Source: a virus
IMG/VR virus record: IMGVR_UViG_3300033064_001806
Location: 1-64,000 of that record
Direction: 5' to 3' (one strand)
DNA length: 64,000 bases
Below are positions 1-20,879 of the stretch, piece after piece. Every line of letters begins with the position of its first letter. The stretch's first letter is position 1. Under the pieces are notes generated by a model. The model was given only the letters and a program-made list of their open reading frames with translations, was not told the DNA's origin and made no database searches. A program made the translations under genes and the position numbers.

Positions 1-888
1 GATACTGCAACAGGTAAATCATCACCAGTTCAAGTAGGTACACTAACTAATTGGAGTAGTGTATCAGCAGGAAACAATCAGACAATTGCAATTAAAACAG
101 ATGGTACTGCATGGGCTTGGGGGGTTAATACAAACGGTAGGTTAGGTTTGGGTGATTCAGCAAATAGATCATCACCAGTTCAAGTAGGAACACTAACTAA
201 TTGGGTATCTGGTTCAGCTACTTCAACAGTTAGTGCAATATTAAATTCATCTGGCATTGTATATACCGCTGGTAATAATGCAAGTGTAATAGTTAACGCG
301 TTAGGAAGGTATGTTTCTTCTACATTTGACAGATCATCACCAGTTCAAGTAGGAACACTAACTAATTGGAGTAGTATTTCATTGAAGTACAATCATTGTC
401 TTGCGATAACAACAGCTGGCTCTCTCTACTCGTGGGGAGCTAATAGTTTTGGTCAACTTGGAAATTGGACGGGTGGACCGATTTTTGATAAGTCATCTCC
501 TGTTCAAGTGGGAGGATTAACTGATTGGAGTACTGCACAAGCGGGTGACTTCCATAGTGTTGGAACAGCAACAGATGGTACATTATGGACTTGGGGGTTA
601 AATGATAGTGGTCAACTTGGTCTTGGGGTTACTACTAATCGATCAAGTCCAGTTCAAGTAGGTACACTTGCAACATGGAACAAATCGTCTGCTGGAGTTT
701 CTTTTACCATGGCAATTAAAACGGATGGAACTCTTTGGGGTTGGGGATTGAATACGGGTGGTCAATTAGGTTTGGATGCTATTGGTAATTTTAATAAATC
801 ATCTCCAGTTCAAGTAGGAACATCTATCAGTTGGCATTCTGTTTCAATTGATGAAGTACAAAGTATTTTAATAAAGCGGTATCAATAA
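1..888 (+). CDS. RCC1-repeat beta-propeller protein (5' truncated by window), probable tail fibre/receptor-binding protein
   Basis: Frame is open from base 1; repeated SSPVQVGTLTNW / DGTLWxWGxNxxGQLG RCC1 blades. Confidence 0.85.
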   Translation, partial: DTATGKSSPVQVGTLTNWSSVSAGNNQTIAIKTDGTAWAWGVNTNGRLGLGDSANRSSPVQVGTLTNWVSGSATSTVSAILNSSGIVYTAGNNASVIVNALGRYVSSTFDRSSPVQVGTLTNWSSISLKYNHCLAITTAGSLYSWGANSFGQLGNWTGGPIFDKSSPVQVGGLTDWSTAQAGDFHSVGTATDGTLWTWGLNDSGQLGLGVTTNRSSPVQVGTLATWNKSSAGVSFTMAIKTDGTLWGWGLNTGGQLGLDAIGNFNKSSPVQVGTSISWHSVSIDEVQSILIKRYQ

Positions 889-4083: not shown

Positions 4084-4536
4084 ATGAGATACGTGTATGT
4101 AGAAAACGGTATAGTTGCAAGTGAAAATCGTTATTTACCTATGAATTGGAATAATATATCTAATTTTAATTCATTGGATGCCGATTCATTGAAGCAATTT
4201 GGGTGGTATCCATACCGATTTGTTGGAGCAACAATACCAAGTGGTTATACAGTTGATAGTTCTTATTATGAAATTACTGATGATGAAGTACTTGAAATTC
4301 AAACTGCAAGACCTTTAACAGATGAAGAAAATCAAACTATAATTGAGTCACAATGGAATAATATAAGATCAAGACGAAATATTGAATTAAATGAAAGTGA
4401 TTGGACACACATTTCAGATTCACCATTAACTGCTGAAAAAAAAGAAGAATGGCAAATATATCGTCAAGAATTAAGAGACATAACTAAGCAATCTAACCCA
4501 TTTTCAGTAGAATGGCCAACTCCACCGGATGCATAA
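4084..4536 (+). CDS. Tail fibre assembly chaperone-like protein
   Basis: C-terminal IRSRRN..L.ESDWT....PL....W..YRQELRDI..Q..P....WP.PP signature. Confidence 0.8.
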   Translation: MRYVYVENGIVASENRYLPMNWNNISNFNSLDADSLKQFGWYPYRFVGATIPSGYTVDSSYYEITDDEVLEIQTARPLTDEENQTIIESQWNNIRSRRNIELNESDWTHISDSPLTAEKKEEWQIYRQELRDITKQSNPFSVEWPTPPDA

Positions 4537-6817
4537 AGTGAAAAATAAAGTATTACAACTAATAAAAGAAATGAATCTTGCTATCTTCAATGAAAATGAT
4601 TTGGTAGATAAGCAGATTATTGTTTTATATCCAGGTACTTTTAATCCAATGGCTTTGCACCATAAAGAAGAATATGATAGATTGTGCCGTAGATTTGGTT
4701 CAGATAGTGTGTATATTGTTACCGATGATATACAAGACGCTATTAGAAAACCACTTACGTTTGCAGAAAAAAACGCTATAATGAAGCGTCATAATGTAAA
4801 GAATGTTATTAAAACAACAAATCCTTATAACCCACTTGAATTATTAGAAGACTTCGATTCAACACATACGGTAGTTATATACGCAGTTGGAAAAGATAAT
4901 ATCGGTAAATTAAATGAATTCAAGCGGTTAACTAAGTATAATAAGGCTTCTAATTTACCTTATAAAGATATTCAAAATCCTTATTTATATTATGTAATTA
5001 CAAATCATGTTGTTTATAATATACCCAGCTTTGGACAAATGAATCAAGAAAATATTCAAAAAGCGTTGGGTGATAAAACTGCTAAACTAACAGAATTAAA
5101 ATCTCGTTTTATTTCTATTTTTGGTTGGTTTGATGCTCAGATTTTTAATACAGTTGTTGCAAGAATGAATGTAAAACGCGGTGAAATGATTGAAGTAAAA
5201 AAGAAAAAGAAAGGCGAGTTAAGACCACTTCACATGATAACAAAAAAGTTTTGGGATAAAGTATTTGAATCTGTTATAACAGAAGAAATAATAGCTTATC
5301 ACAGAAGTTCAAAAAATCTTCATAAGTTTGATATATCAAATGTTAGTGTTGATAGTAATAGACAAAGATATGGATATGGGCTTTATTTTTCTGATAATAT
5401 ACCACATAATCAGTACGGTGATTACTTATATAAAGTAAAACTTTTTAAAGATAAAAAAGAATATGTTTTAATAGACACACAGAATCCAGTTGAAGAAGAT
5501 ATAGTTAATAAAATTGTAGAATCAATTAAGGGGTATGGTAAAAATTCTGATGAAGTTGTTAAGTTTGCTTATAGTGGTTGGTTATTTTACAAAACTTTAT
5601 CAAGAATTTTAGGTGGTGATAAATACGCTTCTTTATTTTTATTTAATAATGGCGTTGATGGTTTAAAAAATAGGATAAGTAATAATTGGAATGATTATAT
5701 ATTATTTAATGATGATTCTATAACTATTGAAGATATTAAATATGACAAAGTATTTGAATCTGTTATAACAGAAGAAGTAGAACAAATAAATGAAGTAGCA
5801 ACATTACCGACTGGTTTATTGAAAGAAATAGAACCAGTTGCCATAGAACTTTTTACGGAAATTGCTGATTTAATACGATTAGATTCGAGTTTTAATGGAT
5901 TTAAGCGTATTTTAGTTTCTAAAACCGAATCTGGACTTGAAAATCAACAATATATTACAACAATTGTAAACCGTTGGATTAAAAACGAAGACTATGTTAA
6001 ACAATATGGTAATGAATTTTTTAAGAGTATTAAGTTACAATCTGTTGAAATTGAAATTGAAGGTGGATTTGCTGCCAAATTTCCTGAAATAACAAAAGTT
6101 GTACAGTATTGTTTTAAAAATGGTAAAGATGTAGAAAATGCAGGATTCTCTTTGGAAATAGAACATTTACTTGATCCAGATTTTGATTCAGAATATGAAT
6201 TAAATAATAAAATAAATTATACAAAATTTAATTCTGAGTTGACACAATTTTCTACCTTTAGTGATGAGTTTGCCGGCGGTGCTGCATTAGGTTCTTCTAC
6301 TAACTTTTTAGATAAAGCACGATTTATAATATATTTCACATTTGAATTTATTCCATTCTTTATAAAGATACAACTTGTAAAACGTGGTACAATAGAAACT
6401 ACAGTTGATACTATAATACAAGAATTTGTTAAAAAAGTATTTTTACCTACTATTGCACATGAGTTGATACATTATGTACAAAGAGTAAAAGAATTTTCTA
6501 ATTCTCAAACACTTCATGGTGCATCATATAATCGTTTACCGAAAGATGATCCAAATTTTTGGAAAACATATTTGTCTGATACTATGGAAATTGGTGCTCA
6601 TGCAGAAGAATTTGTAGAACAAATGAGATCGAATTTTCCAATGGAAACTGATAAATCAATATTGAAAATGTTACAATACGATGAAATACCACTCGGTGCA
6701 TCAGACGCACTAAAAAAATATTACGATGCGTTTTTCAAGGAAATGGGTAATAGTCCAAATGATCCAGTTAAGAAAAGATTTATAAAAACAGTTTATCAAA
6801 TCATAGATAAAAGTTAA
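4529..6817 (+). CDS. Polyvalent protein: degenerate HIGH-type nucleotidyltransferase, ART-like domain and zincin metallopeptidase
   Basis: LYPGTFNPMALHH; AYHRS...F.....YGYGLYFSD; TIAHELIHYVQ...Y....EIGAHA. Confidence 0.65.
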   Translation: MHKVKNKVLQLIKEMNLAIFNENDLVDKQIIVLYPGTFNPMALHHKEEYDRLCRRFGSDSVYIVTDDIQDAIRKPLTFAEKNAIMKRHNVKNVIKTTNPYNPLELLEDFDSTHTVVIYAVGKDNIGKLNEFKRLTKYNKASNLPYKDIQNPYLYYVITNHVVYNIPSFGQMNQENIQKALGDKTAKLTELKSRFISIFGWFDAQIFNTVVARMNVKRGEMIEVKKKKKGELRPLHMITKKFWDKVFESVITEEIIAYHRSSKNLHKFDISNVSVDSNRQRYGYGLYFSDNIPHNQYGDYLYKVKLFKDKKEYVLIDTQNPVEEDIVNKIVESIKGYGKNSDEVVKFAYSGWLFYKTLSRILGGDKYASLFLFNNGVDGLKNRISNNWNDYILFNDDSITIEDIKYDKVFESVITEEVEQINEVATLPTGLLKEIEPVAIELFTEIADLIRLDSSFNGFKRILVSKTESGLENQQYITTIVNRWIKNEDYVKQYGNEFFKSIKLQSVEIEIEGGFAAKFPEITKVVQYCFKNGKDVENAGFSLEIEHLLDPDFDSEYELNNKINYTKFNSELTQFSTFSDEFAGGAALGSSTNFLDKARFIIYFTFEFIPFFIKIQLVKRGTIETTVDTIIQEFVKKVFLPTIAHELIHYVQRVKEFSNSQTLHGASYNRLPKDDPNFWKTYLSDTMEIGAHAEEFVEQMRSNFPMETDKSILKMLQYDEIPLGASDALKKYYDAFFKEMGNSPNDPVKKRFIKTVYQIIDKS
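5258..5776 (+). repeat. Perfect 30-bp direct repeat (5258-5287 and 5747-5776) flanking the ART domain
   Basis: aaagtatttgaatctgttataacagaagaa occurs twice, 489 bp (163 codons) apart; encodes KVFESVITEE. Confidence 0.95.
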
Positions 6818-6839
6818 TAAAGTAATAAAAGGTTATGTT

Positions 6840-7481
6840 ATGGAAATAAAAATTGAGAATATACAAGATGTTAAAAAACTTCTTGCAGGTGAACACGATA
6901 GTCAGAATAAAGTTCAAATCGGTTATGTGGGTGAACCATTAGAAGATACAGAAACAAGAAAAGTTGGTGATAAATGGTTTGATTCTGATGGAAATGAATG
7001 GGAACAAAAGAATGGATATAAAGTAAAACTTGGAAAACAATGGCAACAAGAATTACATCAGTATTTAACTACATTCAAAAATTGTCCAAAAGAAACTTGT
7101 ACTTGTTCAATGCCAAAGCGATTAGATGAAAAGATGAGAAATATACATGGAATGTGTTTTGACTGTGTAATTGACATGGAACACAAACTTCGCTTAGAAG
7201 GTAAGTGGGATGAATATGAAAACAGAAAAGTAAAAGAAAATGCTATTGCTTGGTTAGCGGAAGCAGAAAGAGATAAAAATGTAGTAGCAGAAGAATTGTC
7301 TAAAGTAGATTTTGCTAATTCTTTCGGTGATTCTGAAAAATGGAATGTTCCAATAAGTAAAGATGAATTATTAGAAAAAATAGAAAAGGAATTTGAAGAG
7401 TTTAGAAAAAACTTTATTGCAAAGTTGGAAAATGGAGAACAGAATGAAACAGTTAATAGTAGAGCGAGCAGTACCAACTAA
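6840..7481 (+). CDS. Hypothetical protein with Cys cluster (possible Zn finger)
   Basis: CPKETCTC...CFDC; intact ORF with phage-like codon usage. Confidence 0.6.
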   Translation: MEIKIENIQDVKKLLAGEHDSQNKVQIGYVGEPLEDTETRKVGDKWFDSDGNEWEQKNGYKVKLGKQWQQELHQYLTTFKNCPKETCTCSMPKRLDEKMRNIHGMCFDCVIDMEHKLRLEGKWDEYENRKVKENAIAWLAEAERDKNVVAEELSKVDFANSFGDSEKWNVPISKDELLEKIEKEFEEFRKNFIAKLENGEQNETVNSRASSTN

Positions 7482-14653: not shown

Positions 14654-15337
14654 ATGGATGTAAACGCTTTCATACATAAAATAAAAGAATCCGAAGAATT
14701 CAAACAGTTTCAAGAAGAACTTGATGAAATGAGTGTAACTAGTATGGTCGCTGGATATGAAACTCCAAAGGCATTTGCTGCTAATGAAGATGATTTTGAA
14801 GAACATAATAAAGAAACTGCGGAAGTTTACGGATATAAACTTGTTCCAAAGACTAAAAAAAGAAATTATGAATCTGTATATAAACAAACTATGCGTTTAT
14901 TAAATGAAGCATCTGTTTCGGTATTTGCATCCGATGGTGATGAATTCAAAGATGGATTTGTAAAAGATGAAGACACTTGGAGAAAATACGTATCAACAAA
15001 AGCAGAAGCTTCTGGATATAAAATAGTTAATGAAAAGAATGTTTTTGGTAAAACTCCAGAAAAATTAAAATCTGTAAAAGAATATTTAAGTGAAGCATCA
15101 TATAAAGAATTCCGTAAAGATGAAACAAGAACTACAAATAGAAAAATAAATGATTCTATTAAACGCATAAATAGAATTATGTATGAAGTTGAGAAAGTAG
15201 TAGAACATGCTTCACGATTAAAGACTGAAATGGCAGTTGATCAAAGAACACTTTGGGGGGAATCACGTAATCGTCTTGTAAAAATATCAGAACGAATTAA
15301 TAGAATTAGTAAAAAAATACACGAATTAGGTGCTTAA
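14654..15337 (+). CDS. Probable prohead core/internal protein
   Basis: IKES, LDEM, LNEA and LSEA protease-type sites; C-terminal coiled coil. Confidence 0.55.
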   Translation: MDVNAFIHKIKESEEFKQFQEELDEMSVTSMVAGYETPKAFAANEDDFEEHNKETAEVYGYKLVPKTKKRNYESVYKQTMRLLNEASVSVFASDGDEFKDGFVKDEDTWRKYVSTKAEASGYKIVNEKNVFGKTPEKLKSVKEYLSEASYKEFRKDETRTTNRKINDSIKRINRIMYEVEKVVEHASRLKTEMAVDQRTLWGESRNRLVKISERINRISKKIHELGA

Positions 15338-15338
15338 A

Positions 15339-16001
15339 ATGAAACAATTACTCGTAGATACTATACTATTTAGTGCAAGTCCAAGAATGATTGCAGAATC
15401 TGAAAAGAAAAACGATGGTAAAGTTATAGTTTCGGGTGTTTTACAAAGAGCAGAAGTAAAAAATCAAAATGGTAGAGTTTACCCAAAAAAGATTTTAATG
15501 CGTGAAGTGAAAAAATATGCTGAAACAAATATTAAAGAAAATAGAGCGTTGGGTGAGTTGGATCATCCAGATTCTTCTGTTATTAATTTAAGAAATGTTT
15601 CTCATAATGTATTGAGTGTAGATTGGAAAGGCAATGATGTAATTGGTACAGTAGAGATACTTCCAACCCCATCTGGCAATATTCTAAAACAACTGCTTGG
15701 TGCAGGAATTCGCCTTGGTATTTCTTCTCGTGGTTTAGGTTCGGTTGAAGAAATAAGTGAAAATACAGTTGAAGTACAAGAGGACTTTGAATTAATAGGT
15801 TGGGACTTTGTATCGAATCCATCCACACAAGGTGCATTCATGTATGACGATGGTCATCAGAATGAAGGTTTAATTAGAGAGGGTGTTAGTTTAGAAACTA
15901 TTTCTAAGATTGATCCTAAAATTCAACGTATTCATAATAACATTACAAATATTATTTGTGAAATTGGAAATATTTGTGAATGTATATTTGGAGATAAATG
16001 A
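15339..16001 (+). CDS. Prohead protease (T4 gp21-like)
   Basis: NQNGRVYP, ALGELDHP, VSH, GISSRGLGS, DFVSNPS. Confidence 0.96.
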   Translation: MKQLLVDTILFSASPRMIAESEKKNDGKVIVSGVLQRAEVKNQNGRVYPKKILMREVKKYAETNIKENRALGELDHPDSSVINLRNVSHNVLSVDWKGNDVIGTVEILPTPSGNILKQLLGAGIRLGISSRGLGSVEEISENTVEVQEDFELIGWDFVSNPSTQGAFMYDDGHQNEGLIREGVSLETISKIDPKIQRIHNNITNIICEIGNICECIFGDK

Positions 16002-16868: not shown

Positions 16869-17930
16869 ATGACCTCGCATTATATCGAAGAAATTATTCG
16901 TGAAGAAATACGGAAAATCATTGAAGATATGGAAAGAAATTCTTTTTTATCCGAGGAAGACGAGGAAGCGCCCGCAGCAGAGGAAACTCCAAAGGAAGAA
17001 CCAAAAGAGGAAACTCCAAAGGAAGAACCAAAAGAGGAAGAGAAAAAATCAGCGGATGATACTGCTTCGAGTGAAGAAGGTGGTGATGAAAAAAAAGAAG
17101 AAGAACCACCAGCAGAAGAAGAATCACCAACAGGTTTAAAATCAGTTGAATTGACAAATCCAGTTGAAGTTCAAAACTTAAAAAAGAAATCAACGAGTAT
17201 TGGTCCAGAAACTCAAGGTAAACTTCTATCATTTGAGTACGAAGAAATTTTAGATGTTTACGATCAGGCTGTTCAAAAAGCAGAAGATGAAGACTCAAAA
17301 AAGAAAATTGGTTTAATAACTAAAAAAATCCAAAACATTTCAATTCTAAAACATAGTATAATTAGTAAAAAACCATTGGACAGGGAAACAACAATGGCTT
17401 TAGATTATTACTACAAACACACTTCTGATATAAATGAATTAGTTCGCTCTGATATTCAATTAGCAACTAAAAAGCAAATTGAAAAGCAATTAAGACTTGG
17501 CAAACCAAAAGAAAAAGAAAGTAAAAGAACTCCAGTATTTACTGATGCCATACAAACGTTCACCGTTAGCAGTTTAGACTTTGCATTCAGAGAAGAAATG
17601 CAACGTTTAGATTTTAATTTAGTTGTATATCGTTCAATAGAAACACCAAATGTTTTACAGCATTTTTTGGATGCGGGTACATGGATTGATAAGGGCTATG
17701 TAACTACTTCCCTAAATCCACTTATAGTTGAAAGTTTGAATAAGAAACGATTACCACTTTTTGAAATGTTAATTCCAGCAGGTTCATCGGTACTCACATT
17801 ACCATGTAAAGTAAATGATTACTGCCATGAAACAGAAGTAACCTTACCGAGAAATTGTAAATTTACAATCCACGGATATAATGAAACACGAAACATATAC
17901 AAAGTATTAGTGGAGCAAAACAATGCCTGA
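16869..17930 (+). CDS. ADP-ribosyltransferase (R-S-E class, VIP2/Alt-like) with acidic leader
   Basis: LVVYR, KGYVTTS and HETEVTLPRN motifs near the C-terminus. Confidence 0.8.
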   Translation: MTSHYIEEIIREEIRKIIEDMERNSFLSEEDEEAPAAEETPKEEPKEETPKEEPKEEEKKSADDTASSEEGGDEKKEEEPPAEEESPTGLKSVELTNPVEVQNLKKKSTSIGPETQGKLLSFEYEEILDVYDQAVQKAEDEDSKKKIGLITKKIQNISILKHSIISKKPLDRETTMALDYYYKHTSDINELVRSDIQLATKKQIEKQLRLGKPKEKESKRTPVFTDAIQTFTVSSLDFAFREEMQRLDFNLVVYRSIETPNVLQHFLDAGTWIDKGYVTTSLNPLIVESLNKKRLPLFEMLIPAGSSVLTLPCKVNDYCHETEVTLPRNCKFTIHGYNETRNIYKVLVEQNNA

Positions 17931-19241: not shown

Positions 19242-20879
19242 ATGAATGTACAATCTTTATTAAATGCTTCTGGAAGTCCCCACAAGCAACTTATCAAAGA
19301 AAACCGTCAAATAGTTAACAAATGGTCAAAGACAGGTTTACTTGATAACTTAAACAACGACTATGAAAAGAACTCTATTGCAGTTCTTTTAGAAAACCAA
19401 GCAAAACAACTTATAGATGAATCAAACCGTACAGGTACAGCAGCTGGCTCAGAAGAATGGGCAGGTGTTGCACTTCCATTGGTTCGCAGAATTTTCTCTG
19501 AAATTGCTGCGAAAGATTTTGTGTCTGTTCAACCAATGAACTTACCTTCTGGTCTTGTATTCTTCTTAGATTTCAAATATGGTACAGCACAACCTGGATT
19601 CACAGCCGCTCAAGGTAAAGATACACAGACTGACTCTGTATTTGGTGTAACAGGTGCAGAAGCAAAAGACGCTGATGCTTCAGGTGGTCTTTATGGTGCA
19701 GGTCGTTTTGGTTATTCAATCAATGAAGCAAATATCAGTTTAGCAAAAGCAGCTACATTATCTGCAACAGAATTCGTAACTGGTTCTGTAACACACGCAA
19801 CACCATCATTATTCCAACACGATACAGAATTCAAAGACGCTTACTCTGGATCTCTTGTAGCTGGCGGTATTATGACAATTACAATTAATTCAAGTTCTCT
19901 TGTAAATGAAGATTTTGACGCAGTTCGTGCTTTCAAAATTAGTGGTTCAACTATCTTCAGCTATTTTCCACAATACACATTCACATCAAACAATAATTCA
20001 ACAATTACATTCGTTGTTTCTGCATCAGCAGCTCCTGCAACAATCGGTATTGCATACGAAAAGCAACCTACAGCAACAACTCGTGGTGACTTTGAAGATG
20101 GTTTAGCAGGTTCAAGTCTTGATATTCCAGAAATCAACTTAGAATTACGTTCAGAATCCATTGTTGCTAAAACACGTAAGTTGAAAGCAGTATGGACACC
20201 TGAATTCGCACAAGATTTGAATGCATATCACTCAATCGATGCAGAAGCTGAATTAACTTCTATGTTGTCTGAGTATATCTCTCAAGAAATTGACTTAGAA
20301 ATTCTTGATATGTTGATTAAGAATGCACAAACAACAGAAAGATGGTCAGCACGTATCGGTCGGGCTTATAACTCTGCTACAAGTGCATTTGCAGATTATT
20401 CAACAGCACAAGGTGCAGCATCTGCATATAACCAACAAACTTGGTTCCAAACATTAGGTACAAAGATTCAAAAAGTATCCAACATCATTCATCAGAAAAC
20501 ATTACGTGGTGGTGCAAACTTCTTAGTATGTTCTCCACAAGTTGCTACAATTCTTGAATCTATGCCTGGCTATGCAGTTGATGGCGAAGGTATGAAATTC
20601 GCAATGGGTGTTCAAAAAGTTGGTCAATTAAATGGCCGTATCACAGTTTACAAGAACCCATATATGTTAGAAAACCAAATGTTAGTTGGTTTCCGTGGAA
20701 CACAATTCCTCGAAACTGGCGCGGTTTATGCACCATATATTCCACTTGTAATGACACCATTGGTTTACGATCCAACTAACTTCACACCAAGAAAAGGTGT
20801 GTTGACACGCTATGCGAAGAAAATTGTTCGTCCTGAATTCTACGGTTTGATTCAAATCGAGTCTTTAGGTGACATCTAG
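19242..20879 (+). CDS. Major capsid protein (T4 gp23-like)
   Basis: LLENQ, LPLVRR, VSVQPMNLPSGLVF, AKTRKLKA.WT.E.AQDL.A.H, YAPYIPL, F.P.KG..TRY. Confidence 0.97.
   Translation: MNVQSLLNASGSPHKQLIKENRQIVNKWSKTGLLDNLNNDYEKNSIAVLLENQAKQLIDESNRTGTAAGSEEWAGVALPLVRRIFSEIAAKDFVSVQPMNLPSGLVFFLDFKYGTAQPGFTAAQGKDTQTDSVFGVTGAEAKDADASGGLYGAGRFGYSINEANISLAKAATLSATEFVTGSVTHATPSLFQHDTEFKDAYSGSLVAGGIMTITINSSSLVNEDFDAVRAFKISGSTIFSYFPQYTFTSNNNSTITFVVSASAAPATIGIAYEKQPTATTRGDFEDGLAGSSLDIPEINLELRSESIVAKTRKLKAVWTPEFAQDLNAYHSIDAEAELTSMLSEYISQEIDLEILDMLIKNAQTTERWSARIGRAYNSATSAFADYSTAQGAASAYNQQTWFQTLGTKIQKVSNIIHQKTLRGGANFLVCSPQVATILESMPGYAVDGEGMKFAMGVQKVGQLNGRITVYKNPYMLENQMLVGFRGTQFLETGAVYAPYIPLVMTPLVYDPTNFTPRKGVLTRYAKKIVRPEFYGLIQIESLGDI

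Follow-up and report, generated by a model that had tools for sequence, protein, structure and literature searches.

The 64,000-nucleotide stretch analyzed here (positions 1 to 64,000 of IMG/VR virus record IMGVR_UViG_3300033064_001806, hereafter the window) comes from an uncultured phage that is a distant relative of T4. Its gene P0001 carries two copies of a 30-nt direct repeat, and between them lies a domain that resembles ADP-ribosyltransferases (ARTs). We consider it likely that the two repeats are the junctions of an optional ART module in a modular, probably packaged protein of this T4-like phage, the module being traded by recombination. According to this reading P0001 would be composed, in order, of a leader, a nucleotidyltransferase-like N-terminal domain (NTD), a linker, the ART, a second linker and a C-terminal domain (CTD) that bears an HExxH motif.

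The direct repeat, AAAGTATTTGAATCTGTTATAACAGAAGAA, is perfect over 30 nt and has two copies on the + strand, R1 at 5258-5287 and R2 at 5747-5776. When counted with the flanks from 5255 and 5744 the match grows to 34 of 36 positions. The spacing from R1 to R2 is 489 nt or 163 codons, and the two copies lie in frame within one open reading frame (ORF) where both encode KVFESVITEE, all of which agrees with a preliminary description of this DNA. No third copy of the 30-mer was found in the window at up to 3 mismatches (0 expected from 100 shuffles). That description had also called for a search for a donor, and this search gave nothing: in addition to the absence of a further 30-mer from the window, no second copy of the linker or of the ART domain was found in the 110-kb virus record, which is estimated to be 62% complete. 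We ruled out a remnant of tandem duplication of a 489-nt unit, as the sequence that follows R2 is unlike that following R1. The parts of the gene are as follows.

4529-6817, + strand: host gene P0001, 762 residues, three modules (from the ORF list and its translation).
4529-4570, + strand: N-terminal leader MHKVKNKVLQLIKE, ending in I-K-E (...KVLQLIKE), recognized by a pattern count and conserved in homologs.
4571-5257, + strand: NTD, probably a cytidylyltransferase-like (HIGH-superfamily) nucleotidyltransferase (weak Pfam and PHROG matches, ESM Atlas neighbors and a homolog in phage Mel-JY01).
5258-5287, + strand: R1, encoding KVFESVITEE, the native C-terminal tail of the NTD, leading into the first ART strand (repeat search and stand-alone NTDs).
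5288-5746, + strand: optional ADP-ribosyltransferase module of predicted ART-PolyVal type, 153 residues (residues 254-406; AF2 model and structure matches).
5747-5776, + strand: R2, encoding KVFESVITEE, located after the native ...IKYD of the ART and before VEQINEVATLP, the start of the CTD (repeat search).
5777-6814, + strand: CTD, 346 residues, a possible zincin-like metallopeptidase (invariant columns and a weak SprT-like match).

The evidence that the module is optional comes from natural alleles. A protein search that covered 5.8 billion proteins returned two length classes. The long class (seven clusters, P0002-P0008, about 758 residues) has the domain and both linker copies, whereas the short class (twelve clusters, P0009-P0020, about 595 residues) has one linker copy and no ART, its junction reading FW[DN] followed by KVFESVITEEVEQINE. 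The short-allele clusters were derived from four sources, each with its own sequence variants. The IMG/VR DNA contained nine long alleles (L002-L010) and three short alleles (L011, L012 and L014). As the nine long alleles are on independent contigs, the two-repeat structure is not an assembly artifact of this contig. In the more distant relatives P0021-P0030 a related motif occurs once and the ART is absent. The preliminary description had predicted that recombination between the copies would excise the domain cleanly and that homologs having a single repeat and no ART should exist. Such homologs were found, and they fit clean excision. Removal of 5288-5776 in silico gave an in-frame product of 599 residues, and across the junction this excision product matched natural short alleles at 116-117 of 120 nt, the junction being exactly that predicted. 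Searches of phage records were less productive: blastn with the P0001 gene gave no match among 50,697 records, and tblastn matched the NTD alone, in Microcystis phage Mel-JY01 and in one uncultured phage.

Further alleles extend the series at the C-terminal side. L017 and P0190 encode NTD-R1-ART-R2 followed by a stop codon, and P0188 encodes NTD-R1-ART followed by a stop codon and lacks R2. L014 (NTD-R-CTD) and L017 (NTD-R-ART-R-stop) have flanks that are 96-97% identical. Comparison of L017:1278-1340 with window 6795-6840 showed that the whole CTD is deleted in L017 and that a stop codon is made directly after ITEE. At the L017 junction (ACAGAAGAA joined to TAAGAGTTAATAAA) the last R2 codon is connected via a short microhomology to the last few codons of the gene. 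P0246 (249 residues) consists of the NTD, the linker and VEQINEVAT and then ends in ...KQFIKS, and may be a different deletion of the C-terminal module.

The alleles also differ in ways that argue for repeated exchange. All long alleles retain R1 and R2 with 0-2 mismatches between the copies, and their ART cores differ by up to about 27% of nucleotides. As long alleles with ART cores of only 71-86% identity share the R1-ART-R2 layout, the identity of the repeats reflects conservation or homogenization rather than youth, and the recent insertion proposed in the preliminary description was not borne out. When the long or short state was placed as a label on maximum-likelihood trees, it changed seven times on the NTD tree and seven times on the CTD tree, and supported branches forced at least five (NTD) and at least four (CTD) of the changes, near the level given by shuffled labels. 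Compared with the window, L007 shows 56-77% identity as far as nt 5237, and from 5238 onward the identity is 98-100%. L003 and L004 hardly differ from the window outside 5302-5698, and within that interval their identity to it is 71-86%. L002, L007 and L008 contain the same ART at 98-100% identity in much more diverged backbones. Given a background divergence of 72-81% between these phages, the ART and the CTD have spread across lineages. In a tree of 77 ARTs the NTD-fused ARTs formed two groups, which are separated by a 99% branch and which each lie among stand-alone ARTs. Hence, the slot was filled or refilled at least twice, and ART versions of two separate clades occupy the same linker-bounded slot.

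Two observations concern the linker DNA itself, which had been suggested to act as a recombination joint, and both support that suggestion. First, the sharp jumps in nucleotide identity between alleles lie within 15-50 nt of the repeats. Second, a change of TCT to AAT (Ser to Asn) is present in R1 only (P0004), in R2 only (L010 and L017), in both copies (L005 and L006) and in single-copy alleles (P0020). Because independent recurrence of a two-base change is improbable, we conclude that sequence passes between R1 and R2.

Judging from stand-alone homologs, the linker was not made for the ART but is native to the NTD module, as its C-terminal tail. Stand-alone NTD proteins of 247 residues (about 58 clusters) end in ...KFWNKVYNEIIK directly before the stop codon and are encoded at 69 or more IMG/VR loci (at least) that have the same neighbors as in the window. 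The CTD and the ART are later additions at that tail. The ART likewise has stand-alone versions (about 50 clusters, about 180 residues). In these, the leader MELRKFIATTIREYLNE and a short spacer come first, (I/F)-T-E-E often follows, and I[IV]AYHRS comes next; the proteins end in IKYDPY. The ends of the ART module are thus the native ends of stand-alone ARTs, and no terminal inverted repeats were found on the module. As stand-alone ARTs carry it at their N-terminal edge, the R1 end (ITEE-II) is also native to the ART. R2 begins directly after the native IKYD of the ART and the Asp codon is shared. A simple origin would be the joining of an NTD-R-ART gene to the tail of a second NTD-R-CTD copy.

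By its model, the enclosed domain has the ADP-ribosyltransferase fold of the H-Y-D ART-PolyVal type. The AF2 model, built on 18 sequences, has a pLDDT of 94.1. The top Foldseek match was 9k3a_B (E 8.6e-5), followed by the anti-CRISPR entry 6kyf, diphtheria toxin and tankyrases. In VIA comparisons, 9k3a_B gave a Z score of 10.0 with a root mean square deviation of 3.4 over 138 residues (chain residues 1422-1604, 16% identity), and Z scores of about 7 were obtained for diphtheria toxin, tankyrase (TNKS), PARP1 and MbcT. 9k3a_B is a domain of the capsid-packaged ejection protein (pre-ejectosome) of cyanophage A4. The catalytic triad of ART-PolyVal proteins consists of a His in strand 1, a Tyr in strand 2 and an Asp in strand 5 (PMC5512222). 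The candidate triad of the window domain is His258 (5300-5302), Tyr286 (5384-5386) and Asp389 (5693-5695); in the model the first strand contains AYH258RS, the second GLY286FS and a late strand ND389YILF. In alignment A2 the His and Tyr are nearly invariant, whereas the third position is Asp in close relatives and Asp or Asn in distant relatives. The Glu of KKEYVLID was considered as the third catalytic residue and ruled out, because the model and the family alignment give D389 in NDYILF.

Pfam gave no PF18760 match to the ART domain of the window at E up to 1. Exhaustive phmmer searching found 193 ART relatives in proteins of 150 to 5,500 residues, and one of these, P0053, scored 32.7 bits against the PF18760 cut-off of 31.2, with P0040 and P0066 slightly under the cut-off. 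As only relatives match the Pfam model, the link of the window ART to PF18760 is transitive. Nevertheless, the earlier assignment of the domain as ART-like is sound, because relatives reach PF18760, the fold matches and the triad is placed as described (PMC5512222). The same type of ART can stand by itself or form part of larger proteins, some mid-size and others giant (1.4-3.6 thousand residues). For P0032, in which the ART stands in an unrelated 799-residue context, no IMG/VR locus was found.

Another ORF of the window touches on ARTs. At 16869-17930 (+ strand), among the head genes and between the protease and an acidic scaffold-like protein, lies an ORF of 353 residues, the N-terminal half of which is acidic and the C-terminal part of which contains YRS, GYVTTSL and ETEV motifs. 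It gave a weak PHROG match to an Alt-like RNA polymerase ADP-ribosyltransferase (E 0.0078) and no Pfam match, and could be a second ART, of the R-S-E type.

Giant polyvalent proteins provided a second instance of the layout. P0307 (3,184 residues) has the same ART between ...TTVESRSQK and ...PVVKSRSQK. The motif positions in this protein are residues 1595, 1767 and 2015, and the presence of a third copy (T-T-RSQK) one module further on suggests that SRSQK is a general boundary motif. L101, a relative of P0307, has a single ...TTVTSRSQK (at about residue 1582 of its longest ORF) and no ART. In L100 a different ART-PolyVal module of 271 residues (PF18760, 46.8 bits) lies between two SRSQK copies (L100:5888-6688 with flanks) that have identical codons over 14 nt. 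As P0307, L100 and L101 show the same layout, linker-marked module borders with empty and refilled alleles recur. In P0304 and P0306 the ART is flanked on both sides by K[IK]K[SQK]QK. A broader proposal, which we put forward tentatively and with some doubt, is that repeated border linkers are a general means for the polyproteins injected by phages to acquire, shed and exchange effector domains, the peptide acting as a processing site and the DNA as a portable homology block. ART-PolyVal modules would then circulate among stand-alone leader-bearing genes, a three-module protein and giant polyvalent proteins, and KVFESVITEE and V-x-SRSQK would be two independent instances.

Other explanations of the repeats must be weighed. 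The repeats could be retained solely because the protein requires this peptide at two places, to serve as a protease site or a structural tail before each module. Identity of the DNA would then be a by-product of A/T codon bias and recent ancestry, and presence or absence of the ART would result from ordinary recombination within the long NTD and CTD homology of co-infecting phages. The base composition is in keeping with this: the GC content of third codon positions is 0 in the repeat and 0.12-0.21 in the P0001 gene, so few synonymous codons are in use. Moreover, synonymous divergence, which is about 0.00-0.06 around both linkers versus 0.15-0.31 in the NTD, remains low over regions wider than the repeats (codons 233-270 and 386-450). 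The L003 swap is bounded within the ends of the ART, and further mosaic blocks are found within the CTD (for example, codons 569-612). However, the occurrence of the TCT-to-AAT change in either copy or in both requires transfer between R1 and R2, and the shift of L007 from about 60% to about 100% identity starts 18 nt before R1 without long 5' homology. Furthermore, the linker variants are mostly non-synonymous (F/Y, S/N/P and V/A), which does not suggest strong constraint on the peptide. We regard this explanation as unlikely, although it deserves weight.

It seems quite improbable that a dedicated mobile element transports the ART module and leaves behind a duplicated target, much as in a target-site duplication. 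Such an element would account for the finding that at two unrelated sites (KVFESVITEE, and V-x-SRSQK in P0307 and L100) filled forms have the linker on both sides and empty forms have one copy. However, in line with the preliminary description, no transposase-like gene was seen among the neighboring ORFs scanned, and no transposase, integrase or homing endonuclease families were found in the P0001 gene or in the scanned neighbors. In addition, the duplicated lengths are unequal (30-36 nt versus about 15-21 nt), the third T-T-RSQK copy of P0307 points to a general boundary motif, and a module that has native ART ends and lacks terminal inverted repeats does not resemble such an element. An intein or homing element was also ruled out, as the insert is a complete ART fold without a Hint or endonuclease part.

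That the ART was inserted once, and recently, in this one genome is very improbable. The 30 of 30 identity of the copies and the slightly more AT-rich ART (GC 0.242 versus 0.286-0.291 for the flanks) would fit such an event, but the layout is shared by nine independent long alleles, whose repeat copies differ at 0-2 positions and whose ARTs diverge by up to 27%, and the ART shared by L002, L007 and L008 is found in backbones that are much more diverged. Last, an assembly artifact, in which a chimeric join made the insert or repeat collapse made the short alleles, could draw on the fact that k=31 graphs have overlaps of 30 nt, the length of the repeat, such that some low-k assemblies could skip the loop, but this has a negligible chance given nine long IMG/VR contigs from different samples, three short contigs and twelve clusters with variants of their own, and outgroup forms that never carry the ART.

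Several points weigh against trading of the module at the repeats. The label changes were counted on unrooted trees, which do not tell whether a given event was a gain or a loss. Breakpoints can be narrowed down no further than conserved blocks of 45-150 nt, which also hold the ART ends and the CTD start, and the low synonymous divergence, since it reaches past the 30-mers, is not specific to the repeat. The L003 swap falls between the repeats rather than in them, and selection for intact domains would likewise gather surviving breakpoints at module borders. Some short alleles stem from low-k assemblies, where a 30-nt repeat might in theory have been passed over, a worry answered by the three short alleles that are IMG/VR contigs of distinct lineages. 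Regarding processing, L/I-x-E is a very short motif that is common by chance, and the metallopeptidase nature of the CTD is not established. Finally, R1-by-R2 deletion, circles and cleavage are all putative.

With these reservations, trading of an optional ART module at the linkers could have proceeded as follows. The ancestral linker, DKVFESVITEE, would have been the tail of an NTD that is a stand-alone protein in the wider phage family and is encoded in the same gene neighborhood. In one subclade the CTD and the ART would have been added at this tail, and the second linker copy would be a duplicated NTD tail joined to the native ...IKYD end of the ART. Recombination of R1 with R2, or with an empty allele, would give the in-frame 599-residue form, and recombination with a filled allele would restore the module. 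ART cores would be swapped with versions from a pool of stand-alone, leader-bearing ART genes. Gain, loss and replacement of the module would therefore all proceed via recombination in conserved blocks that include the linkers; the recombination is presumed to be homologous and to use 30-36 nt of identity. At the protein level P0001 would be packaged and injected, and the modules would be released through cleavage at the I-T-E of each linker, carried out by the gp21-type prohead protease or the CTD.

The genes of the phage and the leader of P0001 bear on packaging and processing. Two head genes are relevant.

15330-16001, + strand: gp21-type prohead serine protease (Pfam PF03420 Peptidase_S77, E 1.1e-29).
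19242-20879: gp23-type capsid protein.

The pattern K-[LIV]-x-x-[LI]-[LIV]-x-[ED] is present in the first 22 residues of 6 of 109 ORFs, P0001 included, where 0.22 would be expected from the within-protein rate, a test that is partly circular because the pattern was suggested beforehand. The six ORFs are otherwise unrelated and begin at 4529, 23415 and 51252 of the window and at 67638, 78239 and 98926 of the same genome, with KLIDILKE, KLKKLLDE and KVLQLIKE as examples. This distribution suggests that the leader may play a role in capsid targeting. A second, conserved leader (M(EKD)M/ELRKFIATTIREYLNE; about 17-21 residues), which terminates in L-N-E, is similar to a capsid-targeting propeptide of the T4 type. 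It heads the stand-alone ARTs plus several unrelated small proteins in related contigs (L019 and L022-L028), and also one ORF at 109723 of the same genome, outside the window.

The T4 gp21 protease cuts after the Glu of L/I-x-E (PMC9026906). I-T-E is present in both linkers, and its cleavage would be compatible with the gp21-type prohead protease of this phage. The signs of virion packaging are indirect, a leader common to other ORFs and the structural match to a packaged ejection protein, and P0001 would fit a packaged, processed polyprotein.

The modules on either side of the ART are less well defined. The N-terminal 243 residues are probably cytidylyltransferase-like. The matches are weak (Pfam PF01467, E 0.11; PHROG 395, E 0.0033, versus 2.9e-6 for a stand-alone homolog), but 28 of the 30 ESM Atlas neighbors are CTP_transf_like clusters (score 0.91) and the homolog of Microcystis phage Mel-JY01 is annotated as cytidylyltransferase-like. 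The invariant residues of the CTD are H644-E645-x-x-H648 (6458-6472; HELxH), with E687 and H691 downstream, and the domain has a weak SprT-like Pfam match (E 0.13). We therefore entertain the hypothesis that the CTD is a zincin-like metallopeptidase. Its AF2 model (pLDDT 81.5) gave no PDB match above background (best Foldseek E 0.34; best Z score of 5.9 in a wide VIA search), its ESM Atlas neighbors were unnamed viral clusters only, and a whole-family profile found nothing meaningful among PDB sequences. As the CTD fold matched no solved structure, the peptidase assignment stays at that level. P0001 joins a cytidylyltransferase-like NTD, an ART and an HExxH-bearing CTD, and thereby fits the definition of a polyvalent protein, namely a polypeptide from a phage or conjugative element with at least two domains that differ in biochemical activity.

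The P0001 gene is flanked by a gene for a tail-fiber assembly chaperone (4084-4536) and by conserved phage genes that lie upstream of terminase (from Pfam and PHROGs), and gene order around it is conserved in related loci. In its terminase, this phage shares 64% identity with Microcystis phage Mel-JY01 and 54% with Flavobacterium phages, and these relatives make it probable that the host belongs to the Bacteroidota or the cyanobacteria.

P0001 can be compared with several known systems, among them the polyvalent proteins with the ART-PolyVal domain, also named Tox-ART-HYD2 (Iyer et al. 2017, PMC5512222; PF18760). These also have several unrelated enzymatic modules per polypeptide, including an H-Y-D ART, and an HExxH module beside the ART is common there and is seen here too. 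They differ in that P0001 is small (three modules) and is encoded by a T4-like myovirus, in that the ART of the window scores below the Pfam model that its relatives reach, and in that the CTD is not assigned to the zincin fold. In PMC5512222 the word "linker" has 0 occurrences, and neither repeated border linkers nor presence/absence alleles of modules are described there.

In the CdiA-CT/Rhs-CT systems VENN or PxxxxDPxGL marks the border of an exchangeable effector, and the motif DNA was proposed to provide the recombination homology that reloads the protein (Poole et al. 2011, PMC3150448). The likeness to P0001, a short conserved motif at the border of an exchangeable domain, is one of logic only. 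In CdiA and Rhs proteins it is the C-terminal tip that is exchanged, along with an immunity gene, and the replacements come from silent orphan copies on a bacterial chromosome. In contrast, P0001 has an internal module between two motif copies in a phage gene, has no immunity gene, and the donors are expressed stand-alone genes. The gene downstream of P0001 is a conserved phage gene that is present also in ART-less alleles. No VENN or DPxGL motif and no YD or FHA repeats were found in P0001. The Rhs motif is also an autoproteolysis site, so in Rhs proteins one motif would be both cleavage site and joint.

The internal proteins of T-even phages are highly diverse and share only a conserved targeting sequence, and this capsid-targeting sequence may have served evolution as a way to recruit various proteins to the capsid (PMC9026906, PMC3012670). 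The phage of the window is likewise T4-like, with a gp21-type protease and gp23, and has unrelated putative cargo proteins with a leader ending in L/I-x-E; one of these is a predicted ADP-ribosyltransferase, and T4 Alt is an ADP-ribosyltransferase too. T4 internal proteins, however, are single-domain with one N-terminal propeptide, whereas here the putative sites lie between the modules of a polyprotein. Alt is an R-S-E ART, whereas the ART here is H-Y-D. The cyanopodophage A4 pre-ejectosome protein (9k3a_B; PMC12002296), the best match to our model, has a solved ART-type fold within a capsid-packaged ejection protein, but that phage is a podovirus and the protein is a large single ejection protein with 16% identity. 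ART activity is not discussed in PMC12002296 (0 occurrences).

ART-PolyVal domains, polyvalent proteins and T4-type head processing were therefore known already. What differs here is an internal module between two motif copies in a phage gene, a full natural allele series and evidence of inter-copy exchange. The earliest counter-defense proteins that a phage delivers are believed to be polyvalent proteins and T4-type internal proteins. To our knowledge, domain acquisition and exchange in such proteins have been inferred so far only from networks of domain architectures.

The P0001 locus is a natural example of the rebuilding of a protein, domain by domain, at a reusable joint. Its allele series is complete and has near-identical backbones: NTD; NTD-CTD; NTD-ART-CTD; NTD-ART; and ART behind a leader. 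The series offers a defined 30-nt joint, evidence of inter-copy exchange and a second example in giant proteins. It also raises two testable questions, whether identity of the linker DNA sets the rate of module loss and gain, and whether the same peptide is a polyprotein cut site. If both are true, this would explain the reshuffling of injected phage proteins by single domains and would suggest a design rule for the engineering of phage-head cargo.

The start of the window (1-888, + strand), upstream of the tail-fiber chaperone gene, contains six tandem units of about 150-165 nt encoding RCC1-like repeats (SSPVQVGTLTNW ... TDGT.W.WG.N..G.LG).

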